NCBI GenBank assembly: GCA_963780185.1
Contig: CAWABA010000001.1
Coordinates: 1 to 64,000 of the forward strand
Source of the DNA: Candidatus Bathyarchaeota archaeon
Lineage (GTDB): Archaea > Thermoproteota > Bathyarchaeia > Bathyarchaeales > Bathycorpusculaceae
DNA: 64,000 nt
Direction: 5' to 3'
The number at the start of each line of letters is the position of its first letter. The first letter of the stretch is position 1. Of the stretch, positions 23,892 through 42,343 are shown in pieces. The notes under the pieces are model-generated. The model saw nothing but the letters and a program-made list of their open reading frames with translations, did no database searches and had not been told where the DNA came from. The position numbers and the translations under genes are program-made.

Positions 23892-25325
23892 TTATTCGCT
23901 TGTGTCTTTCGGCTGAGTTGAGGTTTCTTTTTTATCGTATAGGTCGGGGTTTATTTTCGCGATTGATTGCCTTATTAAGTCACAGTAGTTCTTAACTGCC
24001 CTTTCTTGTTCTTCAAGCACCTTGTTAAGGCTCATTATCTCTTTACCAAGCTGCTCCCTTTCAACTTTAAGAGACGCCTCTAAATCCTGAACTCTCTTTC
24101 CAACATCTGAGATTTTGCTTAGGTATTCAGCAACTGCCCCTGTCGGTTGAGTTGTTTGGCTTTCCCAGTTTTCGTAAATGCCCAGTATTTGGGTTGTGGC
24201 TGCGGCTTGGATTGTTTTTTCCGGTGCCGTTTTGGCTGTTGGGGTGAGTTGTTGGGTGCTTGGCTGCTCTAAGCTGGATTTTTCAAGCGGCACGGTTATT
24301 GTCGGGTAGGTTTGGGTAGCTGGCATTTCTGGCATTTGTGTTCCGATTTTCGGTGTTGGTTTTCGTCTAAGGAAACCCACAAGTAATGTGAAAGTGAAAA
24401 AGCCTGTTGCTACTAAGAGCCACGAGAACAAGCTTATGGAGTTTTCAACAAAGGGGTTGGGTGTCGGAGTGGGTGTGGCTGTTGGTGTCGGCGAAGGGGT
24501 AGGAGTAGGCGAGGCTGTGCTGTTGCTGGCTACGGTGAAATAGACATTTTGGTTTTCGGCTGCGGGAATGTTTGTGCCGTTGTAGGTTCCTGAGTATATT
24601 GCTACATTGATTGTTCCCCAACCTAAAGCTGCATTGTCAGGTATTTGGAGGGCAGCTTCGACTTGGGTTTGATTTGAGCTTGCAATCTGGCTGTTGAGAA
24701 TTTCTGTTTGGTTAATACTTTGGCTTGTCGAGTCTTGCATGTTAATCGTGACGTTTGCTGTTTGGGCTGGTCCCTTGTTGCTCATTGTCGCTTGAACTGT
24801 AACGGTGCTGCCTGGAGAAAAGACCGTTTGATTCTGACCATGCGAATCTAGCAGACTTATTGAAGCGGCTTCTATGTTCCATTGTGTAGTAAAGCTTGAG
24901 CTTTTTGGCTGTGCGTTGTTAACCGTTGCGGTGACGTTCCATGTTCCGATTAGGGCATCTTCGTTTTGTCCTTCTATTGGCAGTCGGAAGGAAAATTCAG
25001 CTTGGCCGTTTGTTGTGGTGGTTTCTATTCTTGTGATCTTTGTCGGGTCAGCGGAGGGACCAACAATGTTGAAGGAGACAAGTACATCGGGTTGCGAAGC
25101 ATTGTTGTATGTCACGGTTGCGCGTACTCTGATTGGATCAAACGGTTGGAACGCAGTGGCTGTTGTGTTTTGATTGTTTAATATTTGCAGTTTTATCGCC
25201 CATGGGTTAGTTGTTGTTTGTGCGTGTGTTGTTTGGATGGTTTGAATAAGGGCAAGGGATAAGATTAGAATTGGCAGAACATACGCCAGATGCTTGTATA
25301 TTTTTTTTGCTTTTAGATGTGTCAA
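23892..25325 (-). CDS. single-pass surface protein: signal peptide, two Ig-like domains, PT linker, TM helix, cytoplasmic coiled coil
   Basis: Hydrophobic N-terminus ending ..THA; FRLP...IGTWNVTATV and LQIPDNAALG..; SPTPTPSPTPT; LFSWLLVATGFFTFTLLVGFLRRK; heptad-rich tail. Confidence 0.75.
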   Translation of the reverse strand: MTHLKAKKIYKHLAYVLPILILSLALIQTIQTTHAQTTTNPWAIKLQILNNQNTTATAFQPFDPIRVRATVTYNNASQPDVLVSFNIVGPSADPTKITRIETTTTNGQAEFSFRLPIEGQNEDALIGTWNVTATVNNAQPKSSSFTTQWNIEAASISLLDSHGQNQTVFSPGSTVTVQATMSNKGPAQTANVTINMQDSTSQSINQTEILNSQIASSNQTQVEAALQIPDNAALGWGTINVAIYSGTYNGTNIPAAENQNVYFTVASNSTASPTPTPSPTPTATPTPTPNPFVENSISLFSWLLVATGFFTFTLLVGFLRRKPTPKIGTQMPEMPATQTYPTITVPLEKSSLEQPSTQQLTPTAKTAPEKTIQAAATTQILGIYENWESQTTQPTGAVAEYLSKISDVGKRVQDLEASLKVEREQLGKEIMSLNKVLEEQERAVKNYCDLIRQSIAKINPDLYDKKETSTQPKDTSE

Positions 25326-25347
25326 TCGTTTTCCCTTTTTTCTGTTT

Positions 25348-26730
25348 CTAGCTTCCTTTCATTCTCTTGTTCAGGTAGTTTCTAAGCAACAATGCCCCGA
25401 TGCATAGCGCAAGATACATCGTTATAAGGACTGTAGCTGCGGCAAATGCAAGGCTCCACGAATAAAACACGACATTCGAACCGTTACTTCCTGCAACGTT
25501 CGCCATGTTGCCCATTATGTTGCTGCTTCCAGGTGAACTCTTAATGAAAACGGTTAATGATGGGAGTTGTTGACGAAAATTAAAAATATACCACCAATGG
25601 GCAGGCAAAGCATACGTGTTCGCTCCCGAATAAGTCGATATTAAGATTAAGGTTTCTCCGAGGGCAACTCCGATTCCTAACAAAATACCAGTTATAATGC
25701 CTGGCAACGCAGCATACAGGGTTACTATCCTTGCTGTCTGCCACTGAGTGGCTCCAAGCGCAAACGACGCTTCCCTGTACGACCTCGGCACGGACTTCAT
25801 GGATTCTTCCGCAACACGAATGTTCCATGGAAGCGCCATAAATGACAGTGATATTGCCGCGGCCCAGAGGCATTGGTCCCACTGCAAGGTTACCGTGAAT
25901 ATGGCGAACCCAATTATAGCAATGACGACGGAAGGTGAACCTGCAAGAGTTTCAATGAACAAGCGAATTATGCTCACTAGCCTATTTTGCGAGGAATATT
26001 CTGCAAGGTAAATTGCTGCGCCGATTCCTATTGGGACAGCTACGAACTCGCAAAAGATCACTACAAGCAGAGAACCGATTGCATAACTTAATACGCCCCC
26101 CGTTGAACCAATCGGTTGCAGTCCCCAGCATATTCTGCTTACATTTGAAATGTTAAGATTCATCGAAGTGAAAAATTGCAAAGATAAGAAAGGTGAAGCC
26201 ATCACAACTACGAATGCAACCATGACAACTACAACGCTGGCGCAAATAATTGCGGAAAGGCGCAAGCCGAGCTTCACTACGTTCTCCATTACAACCGGCG
26301 AATCCATTGTTTGATTTTTACGTCTTCTTCCGTGGAGCGTTTCAAGCGTTGCCGATATGCCGGTTAAAAGCGCGATTGGAATTGTGAAGTAAATAGGCAG
26401 CGCGTTTACGACAATTAGTAACGCTGCTATTGCAAACGTCGCAATCGACAGTTTCCAGCCTAACGAATGTCCTTCCCAAAGCAAATACGCTGAGCAAAAC
26501 AGGACAAGGCTTACCAGCATCATTAGCAACGAAAACATTATGACGGAAACATAATCATCAGCAGTTAACAGGGAAAAAGTCAAACCTTCCATGCCGTTGA
26601 TAAGGTGGATCATGCCTGGCGTCAAAGAGATAATGGCGGAAATGAAAAGCAGGGTTCCTGTCAGCAAGTTTTCCTTTTTCTTGTTTCCAAAGAAATTGGA
26701 AACTTTTGCTAACGTTGACCTAAAATTCAT
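25348..26730 (-). CDS. pstA: phosphate ABC transporter permease PstA with extra N-terminal membrane domain
   Basis: GAAIYLAEY, LAGSPSVVIA, EESMKSVP.SYREASFALGATQWQT (EAA loop), ALGET. Confidence 0.9.
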   Translation of the reverse strand: MNFRSTLAKVSNFFGNKKKENLLTGTLLFISAIISLTPGMIHLINGMEGLTFSLLTADDYVSVIMFSLLMMLVSLVLFCSAYLLWEGHSLGWKLSIATFAIAALLIVVNALPIYFTIPIALLTGISATLETLHGRRRKNQTMDSPVVMENVVKLGLRLSAIICASVVVVMVAFVVVMASPFLSLQFFTSMNLNISNVSRICWGLQPIGSTGGVLSYAIGSLLVVIFCEFVAVPIGIGAAIYLAEYSSQNRLVSIIRLFIETLAGSPSVVIAIIGFAIFTVTLQWDQCLWAAAISLSFMALPWNIRVAEESMKSVPRSYREASFALGATQWQTARIVTLYAALPGIITGILLGIGVALGETLILISTYSGANTYALPAHWWYIFNFRQQLPSLTVFIKSSPGSSNIMGNMANVAGSNGSNVVFYSWSLAFAAATVLITMYLALCIGALLLRNYLNKRMKGS

Positions 26731-26736
26731 TTTTGG

Positions 26737-27672
26737 TCACTCCATCCTGCTTTTGCCCCGATTAGCCATTATCATTCTTGCTGCAATCAGTAACGCGCCG
26801 ATGATCACAAAGAGAATGAATCCTACGGCGTAAATGCTCGGTCCAGGGCTAGCGGTTTGATCCAATGAACTTTGGTAGCCATTTTCCATGATTATGGAGA
26901 GCGTTTTGGTTTGAATCAGAGGATTCAAAATCAAAAGTGAGGGGGATTGCATAAGCGTTTGATTTATCGCGCCATTCAGTACCCAGTTGAGCGCGACCAT
27001 TTCGCCCATAGCAGCCGCGAGCGCTAATAGAACTGAAGTGACGATTTTGGGCATTGCGCTGGGTATTAAGACTTCCTTGGTGGTCTGCCATCTAGTGGCC
27101 CCTAATCCCAAAGATGCTTCTCGCAACTCATTTGGCACTGCTCTTAACGCGTCCTCTGAAATTGTTGCAATTATAGGAAAAGACATTACCATCAGAATTA
27201 TCCACCCGAATAAAATGCAGCCCTGAAATTGCAACCCGCTTTGAACATGCAAAAAATGAGTGAACGTGTAACTATAAGAGGAAGGGGTGACTAAAAGTTG
27301 CCAGCCTATTAATCCAATAACTATTGAGGGAAAACCGTCTAGCACTTCCAGAGATGTTTTTGTAAAGTTTCTAACTCTCATATCGGCAAATTCCGCCATG
27401 TAAATTGCACATGGAAGCCCAATAATCAACGCTAATACGGTTGCACCCAAAGCGAGATAAACGGTTGATCCCATAGCTATGAGAATCTGGTTGCCGGGAC
27501 CAACAACTGTTCCATCAAATATTGAAATTCCATGGAAAAAGAAACCAGTTACAGCCGGGCCCCCCATGAACGTTAAGTAGCCAATTATGGACAAAACCAG
27601 AACTATCGAAAAAGCTGCGCAAAGGAACAGGGTTGACTTGACCAGCCTTTCTTTCAGTAGTTTGCTCATCAA
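26737..27672 (-). CDS. pstC: phosphate ABC transporter permease PstC
   Basis: AIYMAEFA, LDGFPSIVIG, SEDALRAVPNELREASLGLGATRWQT, AMGEM. Confidence 0.9.
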   Translation of the reverse strand: MMSKLLKERLVKSTLFLCAAFSIVLVLSIIGYLTFMGGPAVTGFFFHGISIFDGTVVGPGNQILIAMGSTVYLALGATVLALIIGLPCAIYMAEFADMRVRNFTKTSLEVLDGFPSIVIGLIGWQLLVTPSSYSYTFTHFLHVQSGLQFQGCILFGWIILMVMSFPIIATISEDALRAVPNELREASLGLGATRWQTTKEVLIPSAMPKIVTSVLLALAAAMGEMVALNWVLNGAINQTLMQSPSLLILNPLIQTKTLSIIMENGYQSSLDQTASPGPSIYAVGFILFVIIGALLIAARMIMANRGKSRME

Positions 27673-27907
27673 TAACCCCCGCTTTTCCTTCTTCGCAACC
27701 GTGAAAAAAGCTGGAAGCTGGCAAGATAACGCTTTTCTATTTAGAATTGATAGTCTACGTAGAAATACGCTTGTAACAAGTTACCCCTCTCCTAAGACTA
27801 TAGGCTAAATTGTTCACTGTAAACTACGTCGGCAAGCTAGATATCTGCTAAGCCCGAACTTATGCTCAGAACGCGAAATCGTTCACTAGAAAGGAGAGAA
27901 ATACAAA

Positions 27908-29596
27908 TTGAATAGAACACAAAAATCATTAGTATCTATGTTAGTTTTAGCAATTCTGGCATTTTCAACAGGCGCAGCATTAGTAAACGCAGCCGCAGTA
28001 ACACAATACAGTCAGCTTTCATGGGCACAAAATTCACTGGTTACTCCAGGTACATTGACGATCTATGGTTCAAGCACAGTCGGTCCGATTGCAACAGAAG
28101 AAATTAACCAAGGGGGTTTCGTAAACTACTGGAACACTTTGGTTTCAAACAACGTAGGTTGGGGCACCGCAAGTGCTCTTGACCTCAACGCAGTCAGCCT
28201 CGCTCAGGACGGCAGCGGAACTGCAATCCCAGCATTATCATATGCAACGGGCAGCGCTGACCTTGCCGAAATGTCAAAACCACCAAGCAGCGGCGAATGG
28301 CAAACCAAAGGCATGGACAACTTACAGCTTTATGCAGTCGGCGTTGACAGTGTCGCAATCGTGGTCGATCCAACGATGACTTGGTTCCCAACTAGCCTCA
28401 CCACAAACCAAGTGGCACAACTATTCGTAGACACAACTTCTGGCACTTCTAACGGAGCTTCTTCACCCGTAAACAGCCCACAAATCACATGGGCGGACGG
28501 TGTAACTAACGGAACACAAGTTAACCAAGGAACACAAGGCAGCACAGGTACAACAGCAAAATACGTCACATGGGGAGATTTCCTCACTGCTTACTACGCA
28601 CCAAATCCCATTCCAAGCACAGTTCCAACAAGTGTCTTGACACAGAACATTAACCGCGCTGTCAGAGATCCTACCTCTGGAACCTTTGACTGCTTCAACA
28701 ACTACTTCGCAGTACCAAACGGCTACCAATTTGCGTACAAAGCACCTCCAGCAGGATCAGCCGACTTAACAAGCACAGTAACAACGGTTCAGGGCTCACA
28801 AGAAATGGCTCCATTCACTTACTGTAAAGAAAACTCAGATATCTACAACACAGTTAAGGCAGGCAACGCAATAGGCGGCGACTACATCGGCTTCATATCA
28901 CTGGGCTACCTCCAAACCTACGGCAATCACGGCGCAAACATGATCGGCCTCAACATCGCATTCAACATGGCTACAGTAGCACAAGGACAAACATCGCCCC
29001 TCATCAAATACTATGGCACTTCTGGCACACAGGGTTTCGTCGGAAGCTCAGTTCTTGCCTCTTGGGGTTCACCTGTCACACCAACCGACGCTAACGTCAT
29101 CTGGGCATACACGGGAAACCAAGGTTCTGCCACCGGTAAATACGAGGCATGGAGATGGCTATGGGAACTTGCACCTGGCGCAATCCCGTCAACTGGTCCA
29201 CTGTTATCCGCAGGCGTTTGGATTTCATACATGATGGCAGATAAAACTACCACCACCGGCATGGTTGCAGTAACACCCGGCACTGGAACCAGCAACTTTG
29301 TTGCAGACCAAAACTACATCTCACTCGACCGTGACGACATGGCAGGTCCAGCGAATAACGTAATCGACTCTAACCTAAACTCATACACACCCAAGGCAAC
29401 TCAGACTCAGACAATCCCCGACGGCAAAGTCAACATGAACGACATCAGCTACTTCGTGACAGCTTACATTGCATACAACTCACAGCACATCTACAACCCA
29501 TACGCCGACATGGACGCAAACGGGCACATCAACATGAACGATGTCTCATCATTCGTTTCAACCTACATAGCATACTACGGAACCTACATCAAATAA
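27908..29596 (+). CDS. pstS: phosphate-binding protein PstS-like with C-terminal dockerin
   Basis: Signal peptide; IYGSSTVGP, GSGTAI, DLAEMS, VGVDSVAIVV, R..TSGTFDCF, IGFISLGY; C-terminal duplicated Ca-binding repeats DGKVNMNDISYF / DMDANGHINMNDVSSF; divergent from pstC. Confidence 0.85.
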   Translation: MNRTQKSLVSMLVLAILAFSTGAALVNAAAVTQYSQLSWAQNSLVTPGTLTIYGSSTVGPIATEEINQGGFVNYWNTLVSNNVGWGTASALDLNAVSLAQDGSGTAIPALSYATGSADLAEMSKPPSSGEWQTKGMDNLQLYAVGVDSVAIVVDPTMTWFPTSLTTNQVAQLFVDTTSGTSNGASSPVNSPQITWADGVTNGTQVNQGTQGSTGTTAKYVTWGDFLTAYYAPNPIPSTVPTSVLTQNINRAVRDPTSGTFDCFNNYFAVPNGYQFAYKAPPAGSADLTSTVTTVQGSQEMAPFTYCKENSDIYNTVKAGNAIGGDYIGFISLGYLQTYGNHGANMIGLNIAFNMATVAQGQTSPLIKYYGTSGTQGFVGSSVLASWGSPVTPTDANVIWAYTGNQGSATGKYEAWRWLWELAPGAIPSTGPLLSAGVWISYMMADKTTTTGMVAVTPGTGTSNFVADQNYISLDRDDMAGPANNVIDSNLNSYTPKATQTQTIPDGKVNMNDISYFVTAYIAYNSQHIYNPYADMDANGHINMNDVSSFVSTYIAYYGTYIK

Positions 29597-29630
29597 AATC
29601 ACGAAACCGCGATGAAAGGAGAACTAAAAC

Positions 29631-31973
29631 ATGAACATCAAAAAGCTTAAACCAAAACAAATAGTGGCCCTGGCACTGGCCCTTTTTATGGTCGTGCCAA
29701 CGCTACTTGTAGCGATGCCTATCGTCAAAGCTACCAACCCAATACCCTACCTGAGTATTGTTCCGCATGGACAGACCACAGGTAGTCAAGGCACAACCAA
29801 CTTTGCTGCTCTAACTACAGGTCAAACCTTTTCCGTTGACGTGCGAGTGGACAATTACTTTGGCACTAACATAGGCGGTGCAAACGACGGAGTCAGCTAC
29901 GTAAGCTACACGGTCCATTGGGATCCCACTGTCCTGAAAGAAACAACCAAATCTGACATCTCTTGGCTTCCTGACCAATCAAACATGGGTGACGTCGCTG
30001 TGGATAACACGAACGGCTACCAGACAATCGGTCAACTATGCTTCGGCTCAGACTCACAAGAAGCCGCTGACAGCTCAACTGGATCAGTATCAGCTACTCT
30101 AACCTTCCAAGTGCTTTCAACTGGCTCAACTGGCCTTACGCTTCAGCCAAGTGATGTTGGCGTTGCGTACCTTAGGGCACCAGAAACAGTCGACAACGCA
30201 AACCACGATGTCATCGGAACACTCACATACAACGCGCTATACAACCCAGTAACAGCCATCAGCCTGTACCAATCAGGAACAAGCACCAACATAATCCAGC
30301 TCTCAGGAAACCCAATCGGGCAAAGCTTCACCGTTGACGTATACATCAACAACCCGCTTGCAGTAAACATTTGGTCATGGAACTTAGGCGTTACATGGAA
30401 CGCAGCCGCACTACAATTGACACAAATATCGGAAGGATCTTTCATGATTGGCGGAACCTCCACAATGTTCGTACCAGGCTACGTAGACAACAATGCAGGC
30501 AACACCCCACAGGGAATCAGCGACGTTTACCTCGACGACGTAACAACAAACGCACCCGCAGGCGTCTTAGCAACTTTAACCTTCCAAGTGATAAACTACG
30601 CAAACAGCAACATAAATCTGGTTGCAGGAATCCCAACCCTTCAAACAATCACAGGAAACACCCCCAGCGCAATCACACCAGCACCAGTCCTCAGCAACGC
30701 ACAATACATCACAAGTCCACCCCCAGCACCAACAAGCCCAGTTGCAAAAATCGCAAATCCAGACACAAGCCCAATAACCGTCTACACAAACGGCTATACA
30801 ATCCCCAACAGCTTCAACCCGAATGCACCCATTGACCTTAGCGCCTCACAGTCATTGCCCGGAAACGACGTTGTTCCAAACCCCAGCACACCTACATTCG
30901 CAATCTCAACCTATCAATGGACTGTCACCCAAGGAAGCAGCCTCTTAACCCTAACGAACCCATCTGCCGAAGCAATAAGCTTCAACGCACCAACAGTTTC
31001 CTCGCTGACCACTTTCACCTTGCAACTCGTAGTCTCAACCGCAGCAAACGCAGGTGACCAACTCTACAACCCAGTTAGCACCCCAGTCACATTATCATTC
31101 ACAGTCGCACCACCATACACAAACCCCAACAGCAACGGAGCACAAGTAGACCTCTACGTCGTAAACCCAACAACCGGAACAACAACAAACCCCATAGAGC
31201 TTCCAAACGGAGCAGGCGCCAACGCAGCATGCGACGCTTTCGGTCCACAAGAACAGATGAACCTTGCCGCATTCGTAACATTCAACGGTGCGTCAGTAGC
31301 TAACAAAGAAGTAGCCTTCCAGATTTCAGACAACCATGGCAACGTAATCGCAACCGTAACCGCATTAACCGGCGAAAACGGAATTGCAACAACAAGTTAC
31401 CGACTCCCATGGTTTGACGGCAGCTACACAAGCGGACCCCAAAGCGAATTCGGAACCTGGAACGTATATGCATCAGTTGAAGTTCAGCAAACAATCGTAA
31501 GCGACACAATGCCATTCGACTTCGGCGACATAATCAGCATCACCGGCGTAACAGTTGCCTCAAGCATCCTACCCAGAAGCACAACCACCACAACAACCGA
31601 CAACTCATTAACCGTTGGTCTTTCAGGAATCTCCAACCAGCTACAAGCCTACTACATAACCTACACAGTGTATGACGCAGGAAACGTACCAATCGCAACA
31701 GGCCTGATCCAAGGCACAATGGCAGCAGCAACATACACAGGCACAGGATCAGCAGCAACAGCAGGAACATTCACCGTCACATCAAGCACAGCAAGCAAAA
31801 GTGCCTCATTCGCGATTCCATCATATGCATTCGTCGGCGGCGCAACAGTCAAAGTTGACGTATTCAACGCAGACCCACTCAACGCACAAAACAAAGCTAA
31901 CCCAGCAAACAACGCAATCGCATACTGCCCAGAAGTACCAGCAACCTTCACAATAGCGATACCCTTCAGTTAA
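29631..31973 (+). CDS. secreted scaffoldin-like protein: two cohesin-like domains, PKD-like domain, two Ig-like domains, no TM anchor
   Basis: GQTFSVDVRVDN..VHWDPTVL..ATLTFQVLSTGST and GQSFTVDVYIN..WNAAALQLTQISEGSF..GVLATLTFQV (cohesin pattern); LSASQS..YQWT (PKD-like). Confidence 0.72.
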   Translation: MNIKKLKPKQIVALALALFMVVPTLLVAMPIVKATNPIPYLSIVPHGQTTGSQGTTNFAALTTGQTFSVDVRVDNYFGTNIGGANDGVSYVSYTVHWDPTVLKETTKSDISWLPDQSNMGDVAVDNTNGYQTIGQLCFGSDSQEAADSSTGSVSATLTFQVLSTGSTGLTLQPSDVGVAYLRAPETVDNANHDVIGTLTYNALYNPVTAISLYQSGTSTNIIQLSGNPIGQSFTVDVYINNPLAVNIWSWNLGVTWNAAALQLTQISEGSFMIGGTSTMFVPGYVDNNAGNTPQGISDVYLDDVTTNAPAGVLATLTFQVINYANSNINLVAGIPTLQTITGNTPSAITPAPVLSNAQYITSPPPAPTSPVAKIANPDTSPITVYTNGYTIPNSFNPNAPIDLSASQSLPGNDVVPNPSTPTFAISTYQWTVTQGSSLLTLTNPSAEAISFNAPTVSSLTTFTLQLVVSTAANAGDQLYNPVSTPVTLSFTVAPPYTNPNSNGAQVDLYVVNPTTGTTTNPIELPNGAGANAACDAFGPQEQMNLAAFVTFNGASVANKEVAFQISDNHGNVIATVTALTGENGIATTSYRLPWFDGSYTSGPQSEFGTWNVYASVEVQQTIVSDTMPFDFGDIISITGVTVASSILPRSTTTTTTDNSLTVGLSGISNQLQAYYITYTVYDAGNVPIATGLIQGTMAAATYTGTGSAATAGTFTVTSSTASKSASFAIPSYAFVGGATVKVDVFNADPLNAQNKANPANNAIAYCPEVPATFTIAIPFS

Positions 31974-31975
31974 GA

Positions 31976-32017: not shown

Positions 32018-32117
32018 TAAATTTTGTTCAATTCAATTCTGTAACTCAATTTCTGTTAAGAAAAACGCGACTGGTTTCCTCATACTGACAGATTCTTTGG
32101 AGATTCTCCGGATTTCG

Positions 32118-33252: not shown

Positions 33253-33256
33253 ATTC

Positions 33257-34546
33257 ATGACCAAAAAAATCATCTGCCAACTGACAATCATCCTCATCCT
33301 GTCCTTCTCCATTATCTCATTGATTCCCAACGCCAAAGCTCAAACGCAACCAACACTTTCTCTTACCCCCTCAACAGTTCCCATCACACAACTCAGCCAA
33401 ACTTTCACTTTAGATGTCTCAATTTCTAACGTCCAAAACCTTTGGCAATGGGACGCCGCAATCGCTTGGGACCCCACGGTCCTAACTCTTCTTAACACCC
33501 CGCAAGAAGGAGCTTTCATGACGCAGGCGGGCACCACGATGTTTATTGCTATCCCTCCAGGAAATGGAACAGTCTCAGATATTGACGATACACTAATGAC
33601 TTCAACTGGAGCAAGCGGAAACGGGATCTTGGCGATACTCCACTTCCAAGTAATAGGGCAAAGTGCAACGACATCCGTTCTGCTTGACAACATCACCCTT
33701 GAAGGTCCCCTTCCAGCTGGATCAACCACGGGAACAGCGCATCCAGTGATAACGCCAACATCCACTTCTTCAACTGCGACAATCACCTTTGTATCAGGCG
33801 GCGCCCCCGCAGCTAACGCCGGCACGGACCAAACAGTACAGCAGGGAACAACAGTTACGTTCGATGGCTCAGGGTCGGTCTCGTCAGGGTCCTCTCCGGC
33901 GTATTCTTGGTCATTCATGGATGGCGGCGTCAAAAAAACTCTCACAGGCGTAGCTCCAACCTACACGTTTAGCACTCCAGGCGTATACGTCGTCACCCTA
34001 GCCCTCATGGACTCAAACGGCAACAGCACCTCCACGGTAACGATAAAAGTGCAAAGCAACAGCAAACCAGTCGCAGTAATCGCCATAGACGGCTTCAGCC
34101 AAGGGCAATCTGCCACCGTCGGGCAACCAATTACTTTCAACGGCACAAAAAGCAACGAAGCCAACAACGGAACGATAGCAAGATACCTGTGGGACACTGG
34201 AGATTGTTCATCAGGTACAAACGCAACTTTAACCCACACTTACTTGGTGCCGGGAACCTTCAATGTGACATTAACAGTTTTTGACGCAACCGACCTCAAC
34301 GGCACCGCGTGCATCCAACTCATCGTCGCGAAAAACCCAAACCAAACCCCAACTCCCACACCTAGCACTACAACGCAAACACAAACCTCCAGCCCCGACC
34401 CAACCTCAACATCAACTCCCACTGCAACGCCTCCATCAAACTACAATCCTCAAACAAGCTTACCGACAGCTGTTTTGGCAATCGTGGTAATAACTACAAT
34501 TGCAGTATTCGGCGGCTCAACGGTTTGGCTACGAAAAAGAACTTAG
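33257..34546 (+). CDS. membrane-anchored cohesin + two PKD domains, PT linker, C-terminal TM
   Basis: QTFTLDVSISNVQNLWQW...WDPTVL...EGAFM...GILAILHFQV; ANAGTDQTV..VTFDGSGS..YSWSF and GQPITFNG..YLWDTGD (PKD); AVLAIVVITTIAVFGGSTVWLRKR. Confidence 0.78.
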   Translation: MTKKIICQLTIILILSFSIISLIPNAKAQTQPTLSLTPSTVPITQLSQTFTLDVSISNVQNLWQWDAAIAWDPTVLTLLNTPQEGAFMTQAGTTMFIAIPPGNGTVSDIDDTLMTSTGASGNGILAILHFQVIGQSATTSVLLDNITLEGPLPAGSTTGTAHPVITPTSTSSTATITFVSGGAPAANAGTDQTVQQGTTVTFDGSGSVSSGSSPAYSWSFMDGGVKKTLTGVAPTYTFSTPGVYVVTLALMDSNGNSTSTVTIKVQSNSKPVAVIAIDGFSQGQSATVGQPITFNGTKSNEANNGTIARYLWDTGDCSSGTNATLTHTYLVPGTFNVTLTVFDATDLNGTACIQLIVAKNPNQTPTPTPSTTTQTQTSSPDPTSTSTPTATPPSNYNPQTSLPTAVLAIVVITTIAVFGGSTVWLRKRT

Positions 34547-34608
34547 CGGAAAACGCCAGAAGGGACAACTTCAACTTCTTTTAACAAAATTCTTTTTCGC
34601 TTGATTTT

Positions 34609-34659
34609 TCTATATAGAGTCTGCTGTTCTCAATATTTTATTTTGGATAGGCTAAATAA
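34609..34659 (+). promoter_or_regulatory. duplicated promoter cassette, copy 2
   Basis: Near-identical to 32118-32169. Confidence 0.75.
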
Positions 34660-34701
34660 CGTTAGTTTGAAGATAAAACACGGAAAAGGGAGAGAAATTG
34701 T

Positions 34702-35493
34702 ATGAAGAAATTCGTGTCAGTATTTTTCATCGTCGCATTCGCTTTAACTATCTGTATTGTGGTTGAGCCTTCACATGCAGCCACGACAACGACAATAACC
34801 GTTGACTCAAGCACCCAACAGTTTCCATCAGCCAAAGTTGGAGACACCATCCAAGTCAATATTTTGATAAACAACGTACAAGGTCTCTGGGCTTGGGACT
34901 TACCTGACATAATGTTTAATCCTGCGGTCTTGAACATAACCGGGATTACTGAAGGACCATTCCTGAAAGCTGCAGGTCAAACCATGTTCTTATGGACCTC
35001 AAGCTCCGCCCTTGCCTTCAGCCAAGGCGACATACCAGACACTGCAGACACACTGATGGAGTACACCACCGCAAGCGGAAGCGGAGTCCTCGCAACACTA
35101 TCCTTCAAGGTTCTGTCCCTAGGCACATCGCAGATTACTTTCAGCCAAACAACCCTATTAAGTTCAACAAACCTTGGATCAATCTCTAGCCCTAACTATC
35201 AGCAGATTAACTGCACAGCCACCGATGCTACAATAAGCGTAGGAGTTACTTCTATCCCCACAGCAAGCCCCACGCCAAGCCCAAGTTCCAGTCCAACTTC
35301 CAGCCCAGCAGCTGCCTCATCGCCTACGGCTTCGACAACTCACGACGCTCCATCTTCAAGTGATCCATCGGCAACCCCAATCTCGCAAAAAGTCCCAGAA
35401 TTCCCAGTTATGTCAATCCTGATTGGCGTTTTGGCGGTTGCAACTATCTCAGCGGTGCTGGCAGGTAAAAAAGCTAAGTTTAATACGAAATAG
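34702..35493 (+). CDS. cohesin protein with S/T/P linker and PEF-CTERM-like sorting signal
   Basis: VGDTIQVNILINNVQGLWAW...FNPAVL.ITGITEGPFL...GSGVLATLSFKVLSLGTSQI; ends VPEFP + hydrophobic helix + KKAK. Confidence 0.8.
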   Translation: MKKFVSVFFIVAFALTICIVVEPSHAATTTTITVDSSTQQFPSAKVGDTIQVNILINNVQGLWAWDLPDIMFNPAVLNITGITEGPFLKAAGQTMFLWTSSSALAFSQGDIPDTADTLMEYTTASGSGVLATLSFKVLSLGTSQITFSQTTLLSSTNLGSISSPNYQQINCTATDATISVGVTSIPTASPTPSPSSSPTSSPAAASSPTASTTHDAPSSSDPSATPISQKVPEFPVMSILIGVLAVATISAVLAGKKAKFNTK

Positions 35494-35813
35494 CTTTTTG
35501 CCAATTTATTTAGTTTTTTCCAAACTCCGATTTGGAACTTGCCCTTTTCACCTAAGACTTCAAATTTTCAAAAATCACGAAAATAAATATTCCAATGATC
35601 CCGTTTTCCTTCAAGAGAGCACGAAACTTCCGTTTTATATATTCTAAAAAGAATCTATATTGATTCCATAATCTATTTGGCTAAAGTAAAATAGTTAACG
35701 ACCCGTTACTCCCCTCAAAAGGGAGCGCTTCGATTGTTTCGCGAAAGACGTGTTGTGAGCTTTACCGCTCAGTTTGCAGTAACACGTTCACCTGTCTTCA
35801 ATGGGGGGTATAG

Positions 35814-37464
35814 TTGAAGCGCAAAAACTTAGTTGGTTTGGCGCTGGTTTGTATCGTGGTTGCTTCAGTTTTTGCCTTAACTACGCGTTTCATTGATGCC
35901 CAAACTGCTCCAGTTCTAAGCATCGTGCCCACGGGCGCGAGCGGCGCATCGGGCACCACAATTATTTCGTCTCAAGCAGTCGGCACCACTTTTTCTGTTG
36001 ACGTTCGTTTAGACAACTACGCAAGCGTTAATGTTGGAGGCGCCAACAATGGTGTGAGTGAGATAAGCTATCTGGTACATTGGGATCCTGCAGTTCTGAC
36101 GGAAACAAATTTAGTTCATAATTCTTGGCTTCCTGACCAATCAAAGATGGGTACTTTACCTGTCGACAATACAAATGGCTATCAGACTGTTGGCCAGATT
36201 TGCTTCGGCTCGGATTCTCAAGAGACTGCTGACAGCTCAACGGGGTCAGTGTCTACTACCCTAACGTTCAAGGTGCTCTCTGCTGGTACAACCGCTCTTA
36301 CTCTTGCGCCAAGCGACGTCGGCGTCCCATACCTTTCTGCTCCATCGACAGTCGATAATAAAAACCACGACGTAACGGGAACAATCACATTTGACGCGCA
36401 GTACGGATTATCAACTTCACCTACGCCCATAACTTCTATCCCTCCCAGTCCCACGCCAACACCTGGGTCAGTTTACAGTCCGACCGCTGTCGTCTCAACT
36501 CAAAACGGAACAGTGTTCCAAACGGGTAGTCAAATAGTTCTGGACGGCAGTTCCTCAACGCCCGGATCGGACAACCAAATATGTCCAATAACGAATTATG
36601 CTTGGCTGGTTCAATATCCTGATGGTTCCCGATTCAACGCGGCCAGTGGCTCCATTGTATCGATCGTCGTGAACACTACAACGTCTCTTCGAGTAAACCT
36701 GATAGTAACAGCAAAAGATGTTAACACGTCCCCTAGCCCTCAATACGTGAACACCTCAGCAACAAGCATTTGGATAAATGTTGAACTGCCTCAACAAATG
36801 ACAAAACTTGACGTTTTCACCAATAAAGGCGGGACTGGACCAAATACGTCCAGCGGACCCTTTGGGCCTCAAGAACTGGTTCGATTATTCGCCTATGTTT
36901 CCTTCAACGGAGACTCCTCAACCCAACGAAAACGTTGTATTCACCGTGATTAATCCTAACGGGACAATTATCTCTGTACAGGCAACACTCACTAATTCAT
37001 CGGGTTATGCCTATTCGGACTACAGAACGCCGAACATTGGGACATCAAATTTTGGGACATGGACTGTTTTGGCTTCTGTAGATGTCAATCAAGTAGTAAT
37101 GACTGACTCAGTTACTTTTGAATACAATTACCTTGTCACCGTTAACGACATAACGTTGCCTGCAAGCGTCCACCGGCAATCCTCCGTGACCATCAATTTA
37201 GCTATTCAAAACACCGAAAACTACACGTCCTCAGCAACCATCACCATAACGGTTTACGATCAAAACGACGTACCGATTTACTCCTACCTGACTACCGTAA
37301 ACAACTTGGCTAACACAGGGTCAATTTCAACAACATTCACCATTCCCTCAACAGCTTTTGTCGGGCAAGCAACAGTTTACGCCAACGTTTTAACCACTAA
37401 TCCTTTGTCTGGCGGAGTTCCTTTCTGCCCTGAACGAACAGCAAATTTCCAAATAATATCCTAG
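35814..37464 (+). pseudogene. cohesin + PKD-like + two Ig-like domain protein, split by one frameshift near 36912
   Basis: ORFs 35814-36953 and 36808-37464 join into a paralog of 29631/37501 (FNG|TPQPNENVVF) if one base is removed; could be a sequencing error. Confidence 0.7.
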
Positions 37465-37500
37465 GCGAAAAAAAAAATGAAGTCTCGGGAGATGAACTGA

Positions 37501-38757
37501 ATGAAACGCAAATCACTGATGTGCTTAATCTTAATTGTCATAGTAGTTTTTTCTGTTTTTTCTATGACTACCCGCTTTATCGACGCCGTGAATAATCCAG
37601 TTTTAAGCGTCGTCCTTTCAGGTACTACGAGCACAAATTCTATTTCCTCAGCCGTTGGAGCAACTTTCAATGTTGACGTCCGCGTCGATAATATCGGCAG
37701 TGTAACTCCAGGCGTAAATTGCGTCAGTTACGGTTTAACTTGGAACCCTGCGGTTCTATCATGCACAGCTAAAAGCGATAATTCTTGGTTGCCCAGCCAA
37801 TCAAGTATGGGCGATTTGCCCCTTAACAGCACAAGCGGGATGGAAATCATCGGTCAAATTGCCTTCGACATAAGTAACCCTGCGGCTTGTGCAACAACTG
37901 GCGGCGTAAGCGTCAACTTTACCTTTCAAGTAGTCTCAGCGGGCACCTGCACTATTGGGCTTCAGCCCAGCGACGTCGGCGTCGCATACCTCACCTATCC
38001 AGATAGCCAAGGCAATAGTCATAATGTCGTCGGAACCACAACATTGAACGCAACGTTCACTTCGTCGGCTCCATCCAATTCTTTAGTTAACATCGACGTA
38101 TTCACCAGTAAAGGCGGCGTCGGCAAGAGTGCAAGCGGCGGGGCATACGGACCCCTTCAAATGGTCCCGACTTACGCCCTAGTTACTTATGGTGGCGCTT
38201 CAATGCCTAACGAAAATGTCATGTTCACCATACTTGACGCAAACGGAACCTCTTACTATAGGCAAGGCGTCACAAACGAAAGCGGCGTCGCGACGATTCA
38301 ACCCAGCTTTCGGCTTCCCGCACCCGATTATGGTTCTCCTCATACAAGCTTTGGAAAATGGTCAATAACTGCTTCAGTCACCGTGTCGGGAGCAACAATG
38401 AGTGACAATGTAACATTTACTTTCGCCTACTTGACCGGCATAGGAAACGTAACAATCCCAGCCAGTACCCACAGAAACGAATCCCTACCAATTCAACTCA
38501 CAATAAACAATCAGGAGATTTCTGCCCAATGGACAAAGCTAAGCATTACGCTGTTTGACCATGCAGGCGCGCCCATCGGCTCCTCCATCATAACGGCATC
38601 TGGGCAAACAGAAAATATCACCGTCGTGGACGCAGCCATCACTATACCCTCATGGGCATTCACCGGGCAAGCAACCGCATACCTGTGTCTGCTCTCTAAT
38701 TCAACAAACGTTCCATTAGCCCCCGAAAGTACAGCAAAGTTCAACATCCTATCCTAA
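37501..38757 (+). CDS. secreted cohesin + two Ig-like domain protein
   Basis: GATFNVDVRVDN..WNPAVL..SWLPSQSSMG..QPSDVGVAYL; DVFTSKGG, FRLP..FGKWSITASV, TIPSWAFTGQATAY. Confidence 0.78.
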   Translation: MKRKSLMCLILIVIVVFSVFSMTTRFIDAVNNPVLSVVLSGTTSTNSISSAVGATFNVDVRVDNIGSVTPGVNCVSYGLTWNPAVLSCTAKSDNSWLPSQSSMGDLPLNSTSGMEIIGQIAFDISNPAACATTGGVSVNFTFQVVSAGTCTIGLQPSDVGVAYLTYPDSQGNSHNVVGTTTLNATFTSSAPSNSLVNIDVFTSKGGVGKSASGGAYGPLQMVPTYALVTYGGASMPNENVMFTILDANGTSYYRQGVTNESGVATIQPSFRLPAPDYGSPHTSFGKWSITASVTVSGATMSDNVTFTFAYLTGIGNVTIPASTHRNESLPIQLTINNQEISAQWTKLSITLFDHAGAPIGSSIITASGQTENITVVDAAITIPSWAFTGQATAYLCLLSNSTNVPLAPESTAKFNILS

Positions 38758-38939
38758 ATCCAAGGAAAAATCGTGTGATTTCAACCACATAGACACTATA
38801 TTTTTCCTTTTTTCTCAAAGGAACTATTTTCTAAATTTCAAAACCTCTGACTCTATTGAGTCTATTTGGATAATGGGTAAATAGTTTTGCGGCGGGAAGA
38901 CTTCAGGAGAGGACGAAAGGCAAACGAAAGAGGCTTAAT

Positions 38940-39352
38940 ATGCGGAATGTCGTTTTGGCAGCTCTTTTAATTTTTCTTATAATGACTTCAACCATTTACG
39001 TGGACGGGGCTTTTTTCTCTCAAGCACATCAAGTCACAGTCAACGCCGCAACGACATACCACTTTGTTGCAACTGGTTCTCCCGCTTCAGTGACCGCTGG
39101 GCAGTGAAAGGCGCCTCCGACGGGGCATCAGGCACGGCACATTTGACAGTAAAAAATGTGGTTTTAACAGCGGATTTGAATCACGACGGCAAAGTCGACA
39201 GCCTTGACCTCATGTACTTTGTTTATGCTTACAACAATTTTGGTGAAAACGGGATTGTTGGCCCCATCTGCGATTTTAACCATGACGGGCAAATAAACTT
39301 CCATGACTTGGTGTTATTCGTACTTGCTTACATAGCATACGAGAAAAGCTAA
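38940..39352 (+). pseudogene. remnant of a secreted dockerin protein (signal-peptide ORF 38940-39107 plus out-of-frame dockerin ORF 39104-39352)
   Basis: MRNVVLAALLIFLIMTSTI...HFVATGSPASVTAGQ* followed by ADLNHDGKVDSLDL / CDFNHDGQINFHDLVLF. Confidence 0.65.
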
Positions 39353-39808
39353 AAAGCCAGCCATAACCTGACGCAGTCAAACATCAATCCAGATAAGTTG
39401 CCCATAGCTTTCTATCTCAGGCGTGCGTTGTTTAATTCAACTATTTAGATCACTAAGAAAAAATGAACGCTAAAACATACTATGATTTGTCTTTAGATTA
39501 TATGTGAAACTTTTAAGAACATTAAAAGCCTATGACATTTTGAACCCGCAAAGATGCAATGTCCCCTAGAAAACAGATAAGGTTCGGCGAGTCAGCCTTC
39601 AACAGCCACCACAAAAAATCCCTGAGATTGGCATCTCAAATCCTAACTCATATGTTGGAAGTTAGATTCGCCGAACAACTATTTTTAGTAACCACGTAAA
39701 TAATTCCAAATTAACCCAAATACGTTCTGAACAACCCGCCCATAAATCGGGCTGAATAAATTGATTTTCGGAAGATTAGTTCTATCTTGTAGGTGCTTTT
39801 TCAACTAA

Positions 39809-40336
39809 TTACTTTGGCAACCCTGCTTGAGAATCAAATCTTGCAAAAAGAAAATAAACCAAAATTCCATCTACAAACAACCCTGCAAACGATGCGGGTG
39901 CACCAACTGCTCCCAAATACAGAAACTGAACAAACTGGAAGCAAGCGGCCAACGCAAACATCGCCAACGCAGTAAAGCGAGCAAGCCTATGTCTAACCCA
40001 AAGTCCCAATCCTACAAGCAGAAGGTCCAGCCCGATAAGCCATGAAACTAATCCGATTGTTGACGTGCTCAAATTGGCTAGTTGCCCGATGTAAAATGGG
40101 ATTCCAGGTACCCAGTTGACGGAAGAAACTACCGTTTGGACTGCCTGACTTGATGCGCCTTTGACCGTCAAAATTAGGAAAAGCCCACCGATGATTAAAA
40201 CTACTCCGAATGTTATGACTAATTTGCTGATTAAATCGGTGATGAGTGGGCGGTCTGACGTGTACTTTCTGAGCTTGTTTATTGCGTCGGTAACTGGGGA
40301 AATATAGTCTTTTACTCCTTGCTGCATCTTTATCAC
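39809..40336 (-). CDS. four-TM membrane protein, translationally coupled to phoU
   Basis: Four hydrophobic segments; GLGLWVRHRLAR motif; start overlaps the phoU stop. Confidence 0.7.
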   Translation of the reverse strand: MIKMQQGVKDYISPVTDAINKLRKYTSDRPLITDLISKLVITFGVVLIIGGLFLILTVKGASSQAVQTVVSSVNWVPGIPFYIGQLANLSTSTIGLVSWLIGLDLLLVGLGLWVRHRLARFTALAMFALAACFQFVQFLYLGAVGAPASFAGLFVDGILVYFLFARFDSQAGLPK

Positions 40337-41388
40337 ACGAGTATTGAATCTACTGTTAAGTTCAGCACGATTTCGGCGATGTCGCAGGAATATTCAGCTG
40401 TTCTTCTGATGCTTTCAATAATCAGTCGCAGACTTGCGATGTCTTCAGTGTCGATTTGGGATGATGCAACCGCTTCCCGCTCTAAAATCCCAACTTCCTT
40501 AATGCTTTCTATGATTGTTTCAGCTCGGTTGTAATCTTGCCTGAAAAGTGACTCCATTGCAGTATCAAACATTTTAATCGCTACAGCGCTCATTTTCTCT
40601 ATTTTTCCTGAAACATCGCTGTCCAATTTGTGTTTGAGCGTCAACACGTTTTCAGCTATCTTAACAGCGTGGTCTGCGGTTCGTTCAACGGACTTGGTCA
40701 CGAGACGGTAACCCAAGCAGTCTTTGCCGCTTGCAAGACCAATTTCTTTGCTTACACGGGGGTTTTGTATCGCCGTCTTTAACTGCCTTATTACGTAAAG
40801 ATTGAACCTGTCTACTTCATTATCTGTCGTTATTACGTCCTTGAGCGATAAGTTGTCGTTTGAGCCGAGGCATGATATCGCGTCTTTATGCATCGACGTT
40901 GTAATTATGCTCATTCTTCGAAGAGCACTTTGAATGGTCAATTCAGGGTAGCTTAAAAGAACCTGCAGCATCAACTGAACAGAAGTGTCAGTCACGATTT
41001 CGGTTCCAACAAGCATCCGCCGCACAAAAGCCTTCACGTCATGCCTCTGATTGGACGATAAGGATTGTTTATCTGATTTAATATGAATAGAGTTGTAACC
41101 CGACAAATATGCCGACACGATCTTTCTATTGATCATTTCAGTATCATCATTAGCGGAAACCAGAATCGTGGCTTCATCTAGCCTTTTCTGAACTCTTGAG
41201 CTTGGAGGAACAATCGTTAACAATCCGCTTTCTTCTTCATGAAGTTTAATGAAACTTCCCTTTTTCAGTTGATTTTGAGCTATCCAGTTTTTCGGCAGCG
41301 AAATAATATATGTGGAACCACCTGTAAACTGAATTTTCCGTGTTTCATCGTCCACTTTTGCCTGCCACAAACTTAGCCCTTCTCTCAC
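40333..41388 (-). CDS. phoU: archaeal phosphate regulator: AbrB-like N-terminal domain plus tandem PhoU domains
   Basis: RKIQFTGGSTYIISLPKNW (AbrB-like), YLSGY, DNEVDRF, SVERTADHA, SIRRTAEYSCDIAE. Confidence 0.9.
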   Translation of the reverse strand: MREGLSLWQAKVDDETRKIQFTGGSTYIISLPKNWIAQNQLKKGSFIKLHEEESGLLTIVPPSSRVQKRLDEATILVSANDDTEMINRKIVSAYLSGYNSIHIKSDKQSLSSNQRHDVKAFVRRMLVGTEIVTDTSVQLMLQVLLSYPELTIQSALRRMSIITTSMHKDAISCLGSNDNLSLKDVITTDNEVDRFNLYVIRQLKTAIQNPRVSKEIGLASGKDCLGYRLVTKSVERTADHAVKIAENVLTLKHKLDSDVSGKIEKMSAVAIKMFDTAMESLFRQDYNRAETIIESIKEVGILEREAVASSQIDTEDIASLRLIIESIRRTAEYSCDIAEIVLNLTVDSILV

Positions 41389-41590
41389 TTAACCAACAAG
41401 TACGTTTTGCCCTAATTGAATTACATAATAAATCTCTTCGCTAAAGAGATTATATATTAAATTATAATCTATGATGGCTATTGTGGAAACCAATATAACC
41501 CGCACGCTTCCCAGTGACTCCCCGGGGAGAGTAGCATTTCCCATTAAGCAAACAGAATAAACGCTAAATCGGGTAAGGAAAGGAAAAAAC

Positions 41591-42343
41591 TTGGGGAAAG
41601 TCGAGACTAGAAAATTCAATCTTTGGTTTAAAAATAATCACGTCCTCAAAGACATCGATTTAAACATTAAAGAAAACGCTGTCACGGCGATCATGGGGCC
41701 TTCAGGCTGCGGCAAATCGACGCTTCTGCGTTCAATCAACCGCATGAACGATCTCATCAACGGTTGCCGCACAACAGGAGAGATAAGGGTTGACGGACAA
41801 AACGTCTACGCTGACGGCAACAACGTTTACGATTTAAGAAGAAGAATAGGCATGGTTTTCCAAAAACCCAACCCGTTCCCCAAATCCATCTTCGAGAACG
41901 TGGCTTTTGGCCCCCGAATTCACAGCATGGCAAAAGGCGAAAAACTCGATGAACTTGTGGAGAAAAGCCTCAGAGGCGCCGCTTTATGGAACGAGGTCAA
42001 AGATCGACTAAACGAAAGTGCCTTTTGCCTTTCAGGAGGGCAGCAACAGCGGCTTTGCATTGCGCGTGCGTTGGCGGCGGAGCCTGAGCTTATTTTGATG
42101 GATGAGCCGTGTAGCGCTTTGGATCCTGCTGCGACTGCGCGCATTGAATCGCTTGCTGTGGAGCTTAAGCAGAAGTATACTGTTATTATTGTGACTCATA
42201 ATTTGCAGCAGGCGGCTAGGGTGTCTGATTTTACTGCTTTTATGTATGTGGGTGAGTTGGTGGAGTATGATGATACGAAGTCGTTGTTTGAAAACCCGAA
42301 GAGTGAGTTGACTCATAACTATATTACTGGGCAATTCGGTTAG
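41591..42343 (+). CDS. pstB: phosphate ABC transporter ATPase
   Basis: [67 protein letters not shown]. Confidence 0.96.

Follow-up and report, generated by a model that had tools for sequence, protein, structure and literature searches.

Archaea without a periplasm have to tether their solute-binding proteins to the cell, and the known tethers are lipid anchors and transmembrane helices. The phosphate-uptake (pst) locus of a Candidatus Bathyarchaeota archaeon raises the question of how its phosphate-binding protein PstS is kept at the surface. This locus (positions 23,892 to 42,343) is part of a stretch of 64,000 nucleotides (assembly GCA_963780185.1, contig CAWABA010000001.1, positions 1 to 64,000 of the forward strand), which is called the window in the following. 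We found that a set of cohesin genes is embedded in the pst operon and that this arrangement is conserved in related genomes; this is the new observation of our study. Sequence comparison and structural modeling suggest that the PstS of this importer is probably held at the surface by a cohesin-dockerin bond and not by a lipid or a transmembrane helix.

The pst locus and its cohesin genes

Gene identities were assigned by comparing Pfam and NCBIfam model scores with the curated cut-offs, and we refer to the genes by their lower coordinates. The minus strand carries the genes of a membrane protein (23892), of pstA and of pstC. Divergently oriented, the plus strand encodes PstS and seven secreted proteins (29631, 32215, 33257 with its open reading frame [ORF] listed from 33218, 34702, 35814+36808, 37501 and 38940+39104). 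Beyond the secreted genes, we found a small membrane protein and an AbrB-PhoU gene on the minus strand and then pstB on the plus strand. About 10 kb of surface-protein genes are therewith placed between pstS and phoU/pstB, and the only pstS beside pstC and pstA is 27908-29596. A first-pass annotation of the window, prepared from the letters alone, had described the secreted genes as lying between pstC/pstA and phoU/pstB, and the gene identities bear this out. The features of the locus are as follows:

23892 to 25325, minus strand: membrane protein adjoining pstA, with a signal peptide, two MG2/Ig-like beta-sandwich domains, a Pro/Thr linker and a transmembrane segment at residues 296-320
25348 to 26730, minus strand: pstA permease (BPD_transp_1, 77 bits; top match TIGR00974, 171.8 bits, cut-off 193.45)
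26737 to 27672, minus strand: pstC permease (BPD_transp_1, 67.2 bits; top match TIGR02138, 164.9 bits, cut-off 196.45)
27908 to 29596, plus strand: PstS with an N-terminal signal peptide and a C-terminal dockerin (nucleotides 29378-29593), assigned by fold, family profile and a dockerin hidden Markov model (HMM)
29631 to 31973, plus strand: secreted, anchorless protein with CohA (about residues 34-209), CohB (about 214-352), a PKD-like domain (about 409-474) and two MG2-like domains (about 527-780); family HMMs, 204.9 and 140.3 bits
32215 to 33252, plus strand: secreted Ig-like protein with a C-terminal dockerin that has two canonical calcium loops (Dockerin_1, 21.9 bits, cut-off 22.9; family HMM, 98.4)
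33257 to 34546, plus strand: membrane-anchored cohesin with a signal peptide, CohB, two PKD domains, a Ser/Thr/Pro linker and a C-terminal transmembrane helix (A2 HMM, 126.2 bits; PKD_4, 114.9 bits)
34702 to 35493, plus strand: anchoring cohesin with a signal peptide, CohB, a Ser/Thr/Pro linker and a PEF-CTERM-like signal (Pfam Cohesin, 37.5 bits)
35814 to 37464, plus strand: CohA, linker and two MG2-like domains, in ORFs 35814-36953 and 36808-37464 (A3 HMM, 213.3 bits)
37501 to 38757, plus strand: secreted, anchorless protein with CohA and two MG2-like domains (A3 HMM, 216.6 bits)
38940 to 39352, plus strand: small secreted dockerin protein, frameshifted, with its signal peptide in 38940-39107 and its dockerin in 39104-39352 in another frame (A4 HMM, 79.5 bits)
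39809 to 40336, minus strand: small polytopic membrane protein, overlapping the start of phoU
40333 to 41388, minus strand: PhoU-family regulator with an N-terminal AbrB/MazE-like domain (PhoU, 77.8 bits; MazE_antitoxin, 38.5 bits)
41591 to 42343, plus strand: pstB ATPase (TIGR00972, 395 bits, over the cut-off of 343.2)

When we scanned the window with family HMMs, exactly six cohesin domains were detected, two of them in 29631 and one each in 33218, 34702, 35814 and 37501. Seven secreted genes, at least six cohesins and two dockerins in addition to that of PstS had been predicted, and all of these numbers were recovered. BLASTP comparison separated the cohesins into two classes, which we call CohA (first domain of 29631, 35814, 37501) and CohB (second domain of 29631, 33218, 34702). 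A double MG2/Ig-like domain is common to 29631, 36808, 37501 and 23892 and to part of 32215 (BLASTP). For 23892, the match to the C-terminal double domain of 37501 reached 9.75e-09, its Pfam MG2 score (28.6 bits) was under the cut-off, and its cytoplasmic tail is probably a coiled-coil.

Quantification with the Pfam Cohesin model (PF00963, cut-off 24.1) gave a divided picture of the predicted cohesins. The model was passed by 29631 (27.1 bits) and 34702 (37.5 bits), 35814 (18.7 bits) and 37501 (15.5 bits) remained under the cut-off and 33218 did not match it at all. The profiles of both classes, in turn, matched solved cohesins. With the CohB profile (67 sequences), 21 PDB matches were obtained at E≤0.01, all of them named cohesin, scaffoldin or cellulosome-anchoring, and the best match was the ScaB dyad 3l8q (5.1e-20). 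With the CohA profile (24 sequences), the best 14 of 16 PDB matches were chains of cohesin modules, the top one at 5.3e-07. Judged from their sequences, the cohesin and dockerin modules of this locus are genuine homologues of these families.

The AlphaFold2 model of 29631 is a string of all-beta domains with a predicted local distance difference test score (pLDDT) of 74.9, and the second cohesin reached about 85-95. A Foldseek search with the whole model (780 residues) returned mostly generic multi-Ig/MG strings with low template modeling (TM) scores; the top match was 7ptp, and the cohesin dyad 3l8q_B was found at rank 36 (TM score 0.35 to the target). Since these matches are generic and the TM scores low, the S-layer match 7ptp is no evidence of an S-layer role. 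Atlas look-alike searches with the MG2-like double domain and the N-terminal domain of 32215 yielded generic beta-sandwich leads with scores not exceeding 0.90.

Two of the cohesin proteins carry a predicted membrane anchor, as had been proposed. The ORF listed from 33218 has a transmembrane segment at residues 412-439, and in all 13 listed orthologues of 33257 the C-terminus is a hydrophobic stretch with a basic tail behind it. The C-terminus of 34702 consists of a PEF motif, a transmembrane segment and a basic tail (TIGR04296, 20.3 bits, cut-off 25), and this combination was present in 9 of 17 listed relatives. Pfam scans of the window revealed no archaeosortase. Analysis of the hydrophobic segments gave no C-terminal anchor for 29631, 32215, 36808 and 37501.

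PstS, its dockerin and the docking model

The protein encoded by 27908 comprises about 560 amino acids, with insertions, and sequence models recognized it weakly. TIGR02136 scored 31.6 bits (cut-off 206.6), the Pfam family PBP_like_2 (PF12849) was not matched at E≤0.1 and a phmmer search of the PDB with this protein alone gave nothing at E≤1. Many of its homologues bear a precomputed PF12849 annotation. We found 95 homologues, 83 of which were aligned, and this alignment was fed to AlphaFold2. The resulting model had a pLDDT of 88.2 and a predicted TM score (pTM) of 0.87. At E≤1e-3, Foldseek returned 58 PDB matches for this model; those listed, down to rank 43, were without exception PstS/DING phosphate-binding proteins. 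The family profile matched five PDB sequences, every one of which is named phosphate-binding or ABC substrate-binding protein, and the alignments shown span the GSST, SG(T)A and R..SGT segments. Among the 83 aligned sequences, G54, S55, S103, G104, D118, S123, S257 and G258 are invariant; the segments that hold these candidate ligand residues align with solved phosphate-binding proteins. According to its predicted fold, the protein is a PstS with the type II periplasmic-binding fold, nearest to solved PstS structures.

The hydrophobicity of the translated ORF revealed just one hydrophobic segment, which is located at the N-terminus (residues 6-32), and no C-terminal transmembrane or hydrophobic helix. 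The first cysteine of the protein is residue 262 and thus, PstS lacks a lipobox. Neither a cysteine in residues 15-40 nor a hydrophobic tail was present in any of the 95 homologues. The absence of a lipobox and of a transmembrane anchor, which had been noted in the first-pass annotation, is therefore borne out.

The last 65 residues or so of PstS (about 498-562) constitute the dockerin, for which AlphaFold2 predicted helices at residues 510-525 and 543-560. Such a module was carried by 93 of the 95 homologues, and in 92 of them the match ended 15 or fewer residues from the C-terminus. PstS had been described as ending in a dockerin with two calcium-binding repeats; the dockerin was recovered, but of its two calcium loops just the second is canonical. 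In the first, the leading acidic (Asp) positions are missing, likewise in all 95 homologues, none of which has two canonical loops (one in 60, none in 35). A six-frame scan of the window with family HMMs identified exactly three dockerins, those of PstS, of 32215 and of 39104-39352. The last of these has two canonical calcium loops. The dockerin of 32215 is 54% identical to that of PstS (BLASTP), and a word-index search with this region found only three near-identical proteins and therefore told nothing about cargo.

The Pfam Dockerin_1 cut-off was missed by both PstS and 32215, but the identity of the modules was upheld by comparison with solved structures. When a dockerin profile prepared from 50 modules of the window and the related loci (see below) was compared with the PDB, the best matches were solved dockerins (6kg9, 1.1e-07; 2y3n_B, 1.2e-06), in which both repeats were covered, and EF-hand calcium-binding proteins appeared further down the list. 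The two helices and the aromatic pattern are strongly conserved between PstS-type and canonical modules.

Multimer modeling of dockerin and cohesin, a check that had been suggested in the first-pass annotation, was carried out for a single pair, which passed the controls. The job contained the cohesin of 34702 (residues 26-175), the PstS dockerin (residues 491-562) and two calcium ions, and three controls were run. The PstS dockerin reached a score of 0.68 on the cohesin of this PEF-CTERM protein, and the best control scored 0.23. In a calibration covering runs without custom alignments or a riding ligand, the mark for a pass was reached by 58 of 80 solved complexes and by 2 of 110 mismatched pairs. 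The docking runs share at least 91% of the contacts, the pLDDT of the partner is at least 74 and both dockerin helices contact the cohesin.

Conservation of the locus, proposed mechanism and competing explanations

One scan of species-representative genomes yielded 18 related loci (L001 to L018) on 17 contigs, and the PstS proteins of these loci are 33-52% identical. Fifteen of the 17 contigs are titled Bathyarchaeia or Bathyarchaeota. Mapping by phmmer revealed a recurring gene order: a 23892-like gene, pstA, pstC, the divergent PstS-dockerin gene, Coh-Coh-MG2, Ig-dockerin, CohB-PKD-transmembrane, CohB-anchor and further Coh-MG2 genes. As in the window, PstS of the related loci is encoded together with pstC, pstA and pstB. 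HMM counts over the 18 loci gave 103 cohesin domains in 163 kb downstream of PstS versus 4 in 168 kb upstream, these counts being slightly inflated by frameshifted gene fragments in some loci. This asymmetry indicates that chance alone does not account for the arrangement. In 17 of the 18 loci, one or more cohesin domains lie downstream of PstS, and the linkage between pst and cohesin genes, the loss of which in related genomes would have spoken against the initial proposal, is thus kept. The exception (L014) is a second PstS-dockerin paralogue located just upstream of another 23892/pstA block that reaches the end of the fetched stretch, and we therefore rejected it as a counter-example.

Orthologues of 23892, whole or fragmented, adjoin pstA in 17 of the 18 loci. 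L011 lacks such a gene, and L003 has a truncated pstC only. Full-length orthologues of 32215 were detected in 13 loci, and related dockerins exceeded the Dockerin_1 cut-off with 43 bits in L011 and with 25.0-28.1 bits in seven other relatives. L011 represents a minimal form of the locus, which consists of phoU, pstA, pstC, PstS-dockerin, a CohB-dockerin adaptor (the module with the 43 bits), CohB-PKD-transmembrane (Cohesin, 44.2 bits), a small membrane protein and pstB. Its small membrane protein, which lies between the cohesin genes and pstB, is an orthologue of 39809-40336, for which Pfam and NCBIfam scans had given no family over cut-off. Two natural fusions of the type PstS-dockerin-Coh-Coh were found on different contigs (P0068, also L005 5744-8257; P0242).

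Some of the related loci showed peculiarities. L010 and L011 are titled as bacterial metagenome-assembled genomes (Limnocylindrales, Acidoferrum) and yet carry the full archaeal-type locus (phoU at 3e-123 in L011). Since their gene sets closely match the archaeal loci, these titles are probably binning errors. In L005, L007, L008 and L016 many genes, including those of PstS, pstC and cohesins, are split into several ORFs, and these loci look like indel-rich assemblies. Large secreted PQQ-type propellers with a dockerin are encoded in L012 (1602-4610), L018 (8583-10688) and L013 (18502-21339), and those of L012 and L018 also contain CohB. A conserved protein of about 350-380 amino acids with CARDB, an internal dockerin and a BsuPI (protease-inhibitor-like) domain is encoded upstream of the 23892-like gene (L004 269-1330, L014 9536-10609, L016 3770-4861, L001 4271-5419); the window contains none.

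The mechanism we propose is the following. PstS would be secreted, its signal peptide would be cleaved and the protein would bind phosphate. Its C-terminal dockerin would plug into a CohB-type cohesin of the same locus. Two CohB proteins would be fixed to the membrane, 33257 by its C-terminal helix and 34702 by PEF-CTERM, which is probably processed by an archaeosortase, and the long Ser/Thr/Pro linkers of these anchored cohesins would give the tethered PstS the reach to PstCA. The anchorless cohesins (29631, 35814/36808, 37501) and the dockerins of 32215 and 38940/39104 probably add docking sites or cross-links. If so, PstS could therefore outnumber the permease. We infer signal-peptide cleavage, binding and its partners, stoichiometry and phosphate regulation of the PstS system from these genomic data.

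It is plausible that several PstS copies share one scaffold, and the largest number of cohesins per protein is two (29631). We only tentatively suggest that the locus encodes a dedicated, phosphate-linked multi-copy PstS scaffold, in which anchored and free cohesins would be arranged above the PstCAB of a periplasm-less cell. In such a scaffold the cross-links might be formed by the two small dockerin proteins and by the MG2-like domains common with 23892, an assignment that we make with similar reserve. A role linked to PstS is favoured because the cohesins are tightly placed inside pst, because the minimal L011 locus exists and because PstS and cohesins are naturally fused.

Several observations weigh against cohesin-bound PstS or its dedicated scaffold. 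Position 124 of the window PstS is Lys, whereas at least 90% of the family carry Arg. Cleavage of the signal peptide was judged by eye only, and if the peptide stayed on as a signal anchor, no cohesin would be needed to tether PstS. The dockerin of PstS is itself atypical. It scored 19.7 bits with Dockerin_1 (cut-off 22.9) and 94 bits with its own family HMM, and calcium-dependent folding as in clostridial dockerins is doubtful because the first loop is degenerate in every homologue and no canonical loop is left in more than a third of them (35/95). Cohesin-dockerin complexes are abundant among solved structures, so that the docking pass indicates likeness to such complexes rather than proof of binding, and one of 18 dockerin-cohesin pairs was modelled. 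The three CohA proteins have neither an anchor nor a dockerin that would account for their retention at the cell. Finally, two of the seven secreted genes are frameshifted (near 36905-36920 and near 39100). The pair 35814/36808 is a single gene with a one-base frameshift, and the BLASTP matches to 29631 and 37501 run across both frames. A third frameshift was seen in a housekeeping gene outside the locus, the MoCF_biosynth (molybdopterin-binding) gene (46132-47053, minus strand), which is spread over two ORFs that overlap (46661-47053 with profile positions 1-84, 46132-46686 with positions 102-143). Since this gene is also broken, the frameshifts of the cohesin locus may have arisen as indels during assembly rather than by decay.

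As first alternative, the cohesin genes might constitute a general-purpose surface display or envelope scaffold with PstS as one client or none, and their position in pst would then reflect shared ancestry or co-regulation. We consider this explanation unlikely, but several observations are in line with it. In a library of 1.84 billion proteins, our dockerin profile found 5632 representatives at E≤0.001, of which 458 reached E≤1e-10. From the best 150 of these, 55 proteins of at least 250 amino acids with one or two matched stretches were chosen for a cargo scan, in which PBP_like_2 was matched by only two. Other cargo included PQQ beta-propellers (8), GH5 (2), GH26 (1) and another glycosyl hydrolase (1), and polysaccharide-lyase-like, NosD-like, Kelch, CARDB/BsuPI and cohesin-bearing proteins were also found. 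PstS-type dockerins thus serve as a general tag at the cell surface of these organisms or of related ones, and because this dockerin type occurs on unrelated cargo, the cohesins of the locus need not be dedicated to PstS. The PQQ-CohB-dockerin and CARDB-dockerin-BsuPI proteins near the pst block of related loci fit with this, and the MG2-like strings resemble S-layer and macroglobulin-type beta-sandwich arrays (7ptp, low TM score). However, the library matches carry no taxa, so that the other cargoes are not assignable to the same genomes. A general scaffold would also have to account for the concentration of cohesins straight downstream of PstS (103 versus 4 upstream), for the L011 locus, which keeps just PstS-dockerin and two cohesin proteins inside pst, for the two proteins in which PstS is fused to cohesins and for the lack of any other anchor on PstS.

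Alternatively, the PstS module might be a decayed dockerin that does not bind cohesins and instead stabilises PstS, dimerises or contacts PstCA. PstS would then be anchored by its uncleaved signal and the cohesins would bind the two canonical dockerins, serving adhesion or the envelope. The degenerate first loop in all homologues and the loss of both loops in 35 of them are in line with decay, and so are the score under the Pfam cut-off and the canonical loops of the two other dockerins of the locus. The AlphaFold2 model, which has pLDDT values of 92-98 over residues 500-560 and the high pTM mentioned above, would be compatible with packing of the module on the PstS body. A decayed module would, however, hardly be expected to share two helices and an aromatic pattern so strongly with canonical modules, to be kept at the extreme C-terminus in 93 of 95 homologues and to be retained in the PstS-dockerin-cohesin fusions, and in the docking model, which passed its controls, both helices are engaged. 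Decay is thus quite improbable. Chance or an annotation artefact, in which beta-sandwich and EF-hand-like motifs were misread as cohesins and dockerins, might be suspected from several Pfam scores under the curated cut-offs and from the EF-hand proteins among the PDB matches of the dockerin profile, but was rejected as extremely improbable because two cohesins and also orthologues pass the Pfam cut-offs, because the profiles match solved cohesins and, over both repeats, solved dockerins and because the synteny is conserved.

Relation to known systems, genomic context and implications

The first-pass annotation knew of no description of such a system, and the claim that none exists is too strong. 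In anaerobic methanotrophic (ANME) archaea, dockerin-bearing proteins are commonly substrate-binding proteins of ABC transporters (NikA/OppA and TroA types), and these archaea also have scaffoldin-like proteins, which contain as many as five cohesins (Chadwick et al., 2022; PMC9012536). Among the entries in the S4 Data of this paper are a cohesin that has a PGF-type anchor and an ANME-2a PstS (TIGR02136, 252.9 bits) whose C-terminus bears a type I dockerin. Both systems are archaeal, both involve binding proteins of ABC importers with C-terminal dockerins and both have multi-cohesin and anchored cohesin proteins in the same genomes. For both of them, the evidence is purely genomic. In the text section of the ANME paper used here, NikA/OppA and TroA are highlighted, PstS is not discussed and no operon linkage between transporter and cohesin genes is mentioned, whereas here the cohesin genes are located inside pst and are conserved on 17 contigs. 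Our system further differs in its lineage, Bathyarchaeia, and in the degenerate first loop of its PstS dockerin. Judged from their listings, our literature searches brought up no report on a PstS-dockerin protein with cohesin genes in the pst operon nor on cohesin-dockerin systems of Bathyarchaeia.

The locus shares with the clostridial cellulosome its homologous cohesin and dockerin modules, the coexistence of anchored and unanchored cohesin proteins and, in L011, a cohesin-dockerin adaptor. The best PDB matches of the locus cohesins are the type II cohesins of ScaB and SdbA. However, a Pfam scan of the locus found no domain of a carbohydrate-active enzyme, as the first-pass annotation had already noted, and no carbohydrate-binding module. 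Here a solute-binding protein serves as the cargo, and two is the highest number of cohesins in any one protein. Because of the missing enzyme and binding modules and the low number of cohesins per protein, the locus is not a cellulosome. Cellulosomes are anchored via SLH modules or sortases, whereas a transmembrane helix and PEF-CTERM are found here, and the genes lie inside a transporter operon.

The cohesin-dockerin pairs of Archaeoglobus fulgidus are archaeal as well and likewise unrelated to cellulose, and to our knowledge no linkage of these pairs to transporters has been described. According to Chadwick et al. (2022; PMC9012536), their binding has been verified. Compared with a conventional PstSCAB system, the set of genes (pstS, pstC, pstA, pstB, phoU) and the PstS fold are the same. 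In contrast to a conventional lipoprotein or periplasmic PstS, the protein described here has a length of about 560 amino acids, insertions, a dockerin and no lipobox, and the surface-protein genes split pstS from phoU/pstB.

Upstream of the pst block, the window contains a polyphosphate island (14865 to 23128), in which the following genes were identified by Pfam scores over cut-off:

14865 to 15767, plus strand: PPK2
15779 to 17365, minus strand: Ppx/GppA
17350 to 19674, minus strand: CHAD-metallophosphoesterase-Ppx domain III protein
19658 to 21820, minus strand: PPK1
22592 to 23128, minus strand: CYTH protein

The same polyphosphate genes precede the pst block in L007-L009, L012-L014, L017 and L018. 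Further upstream, the GC content falls to 0.39 between 12000 and 14300 (about 0.47-0.50 around), and this stretch holds a tRNA-Gly(CCC) (12894-12970) and the gene of an AAA_14/DUF4143 ATPase (13041-14261). An element that integrated next to the tRNA may account for this stretch. ORF 12584-13015, which overlaps the tRNA, is probably spurious. Scans for RNAs and tRNAs detected none within the pst-cohesin locus itself. On the plus strand at 47022-50496, two paralogues of 828 and 316 amino acids (45% identity over about 209 residues) each have an N-terminal hydrophobic segment and a C-terminal transmembrane segment; Pfam and family HMM scans assigned no Pfam family, cohesin or dockerin to them. 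A gene for formylmethanofuran-tetrahydromethanopterin formyltransferase (4643-5569, plus strand) lies among purine-synthesis genes and is consistent with the archaeal tetrahydromethanopterin pathway.

If PstS is tethered as proposed, the cohesin-dockerin bond would represent a third, modular tether for archaeal binding proteins, which is encoded in the operon of the transporter itself, and the ratio of binding protein to permease could rise without crowding of the membrane. A PstS scaffold, if it exists, would be the first cohesin-dockerin machine for the capture of an inorganic nutrient that is encoded inside a transporter operon, and a whole class of uncultured archaea abundant in soil and peat would share it. 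The locus gives the widespread non-cellulosomal cohesins and dockerins of archaea a concrete function that can be tested with three dockerins and six cohesins, and protein engineering gains a source of new orthogonal cohesin-dockerin pairs. Taken together, these data bear on the way in which Bathyarchaeia acquire phosphorus.

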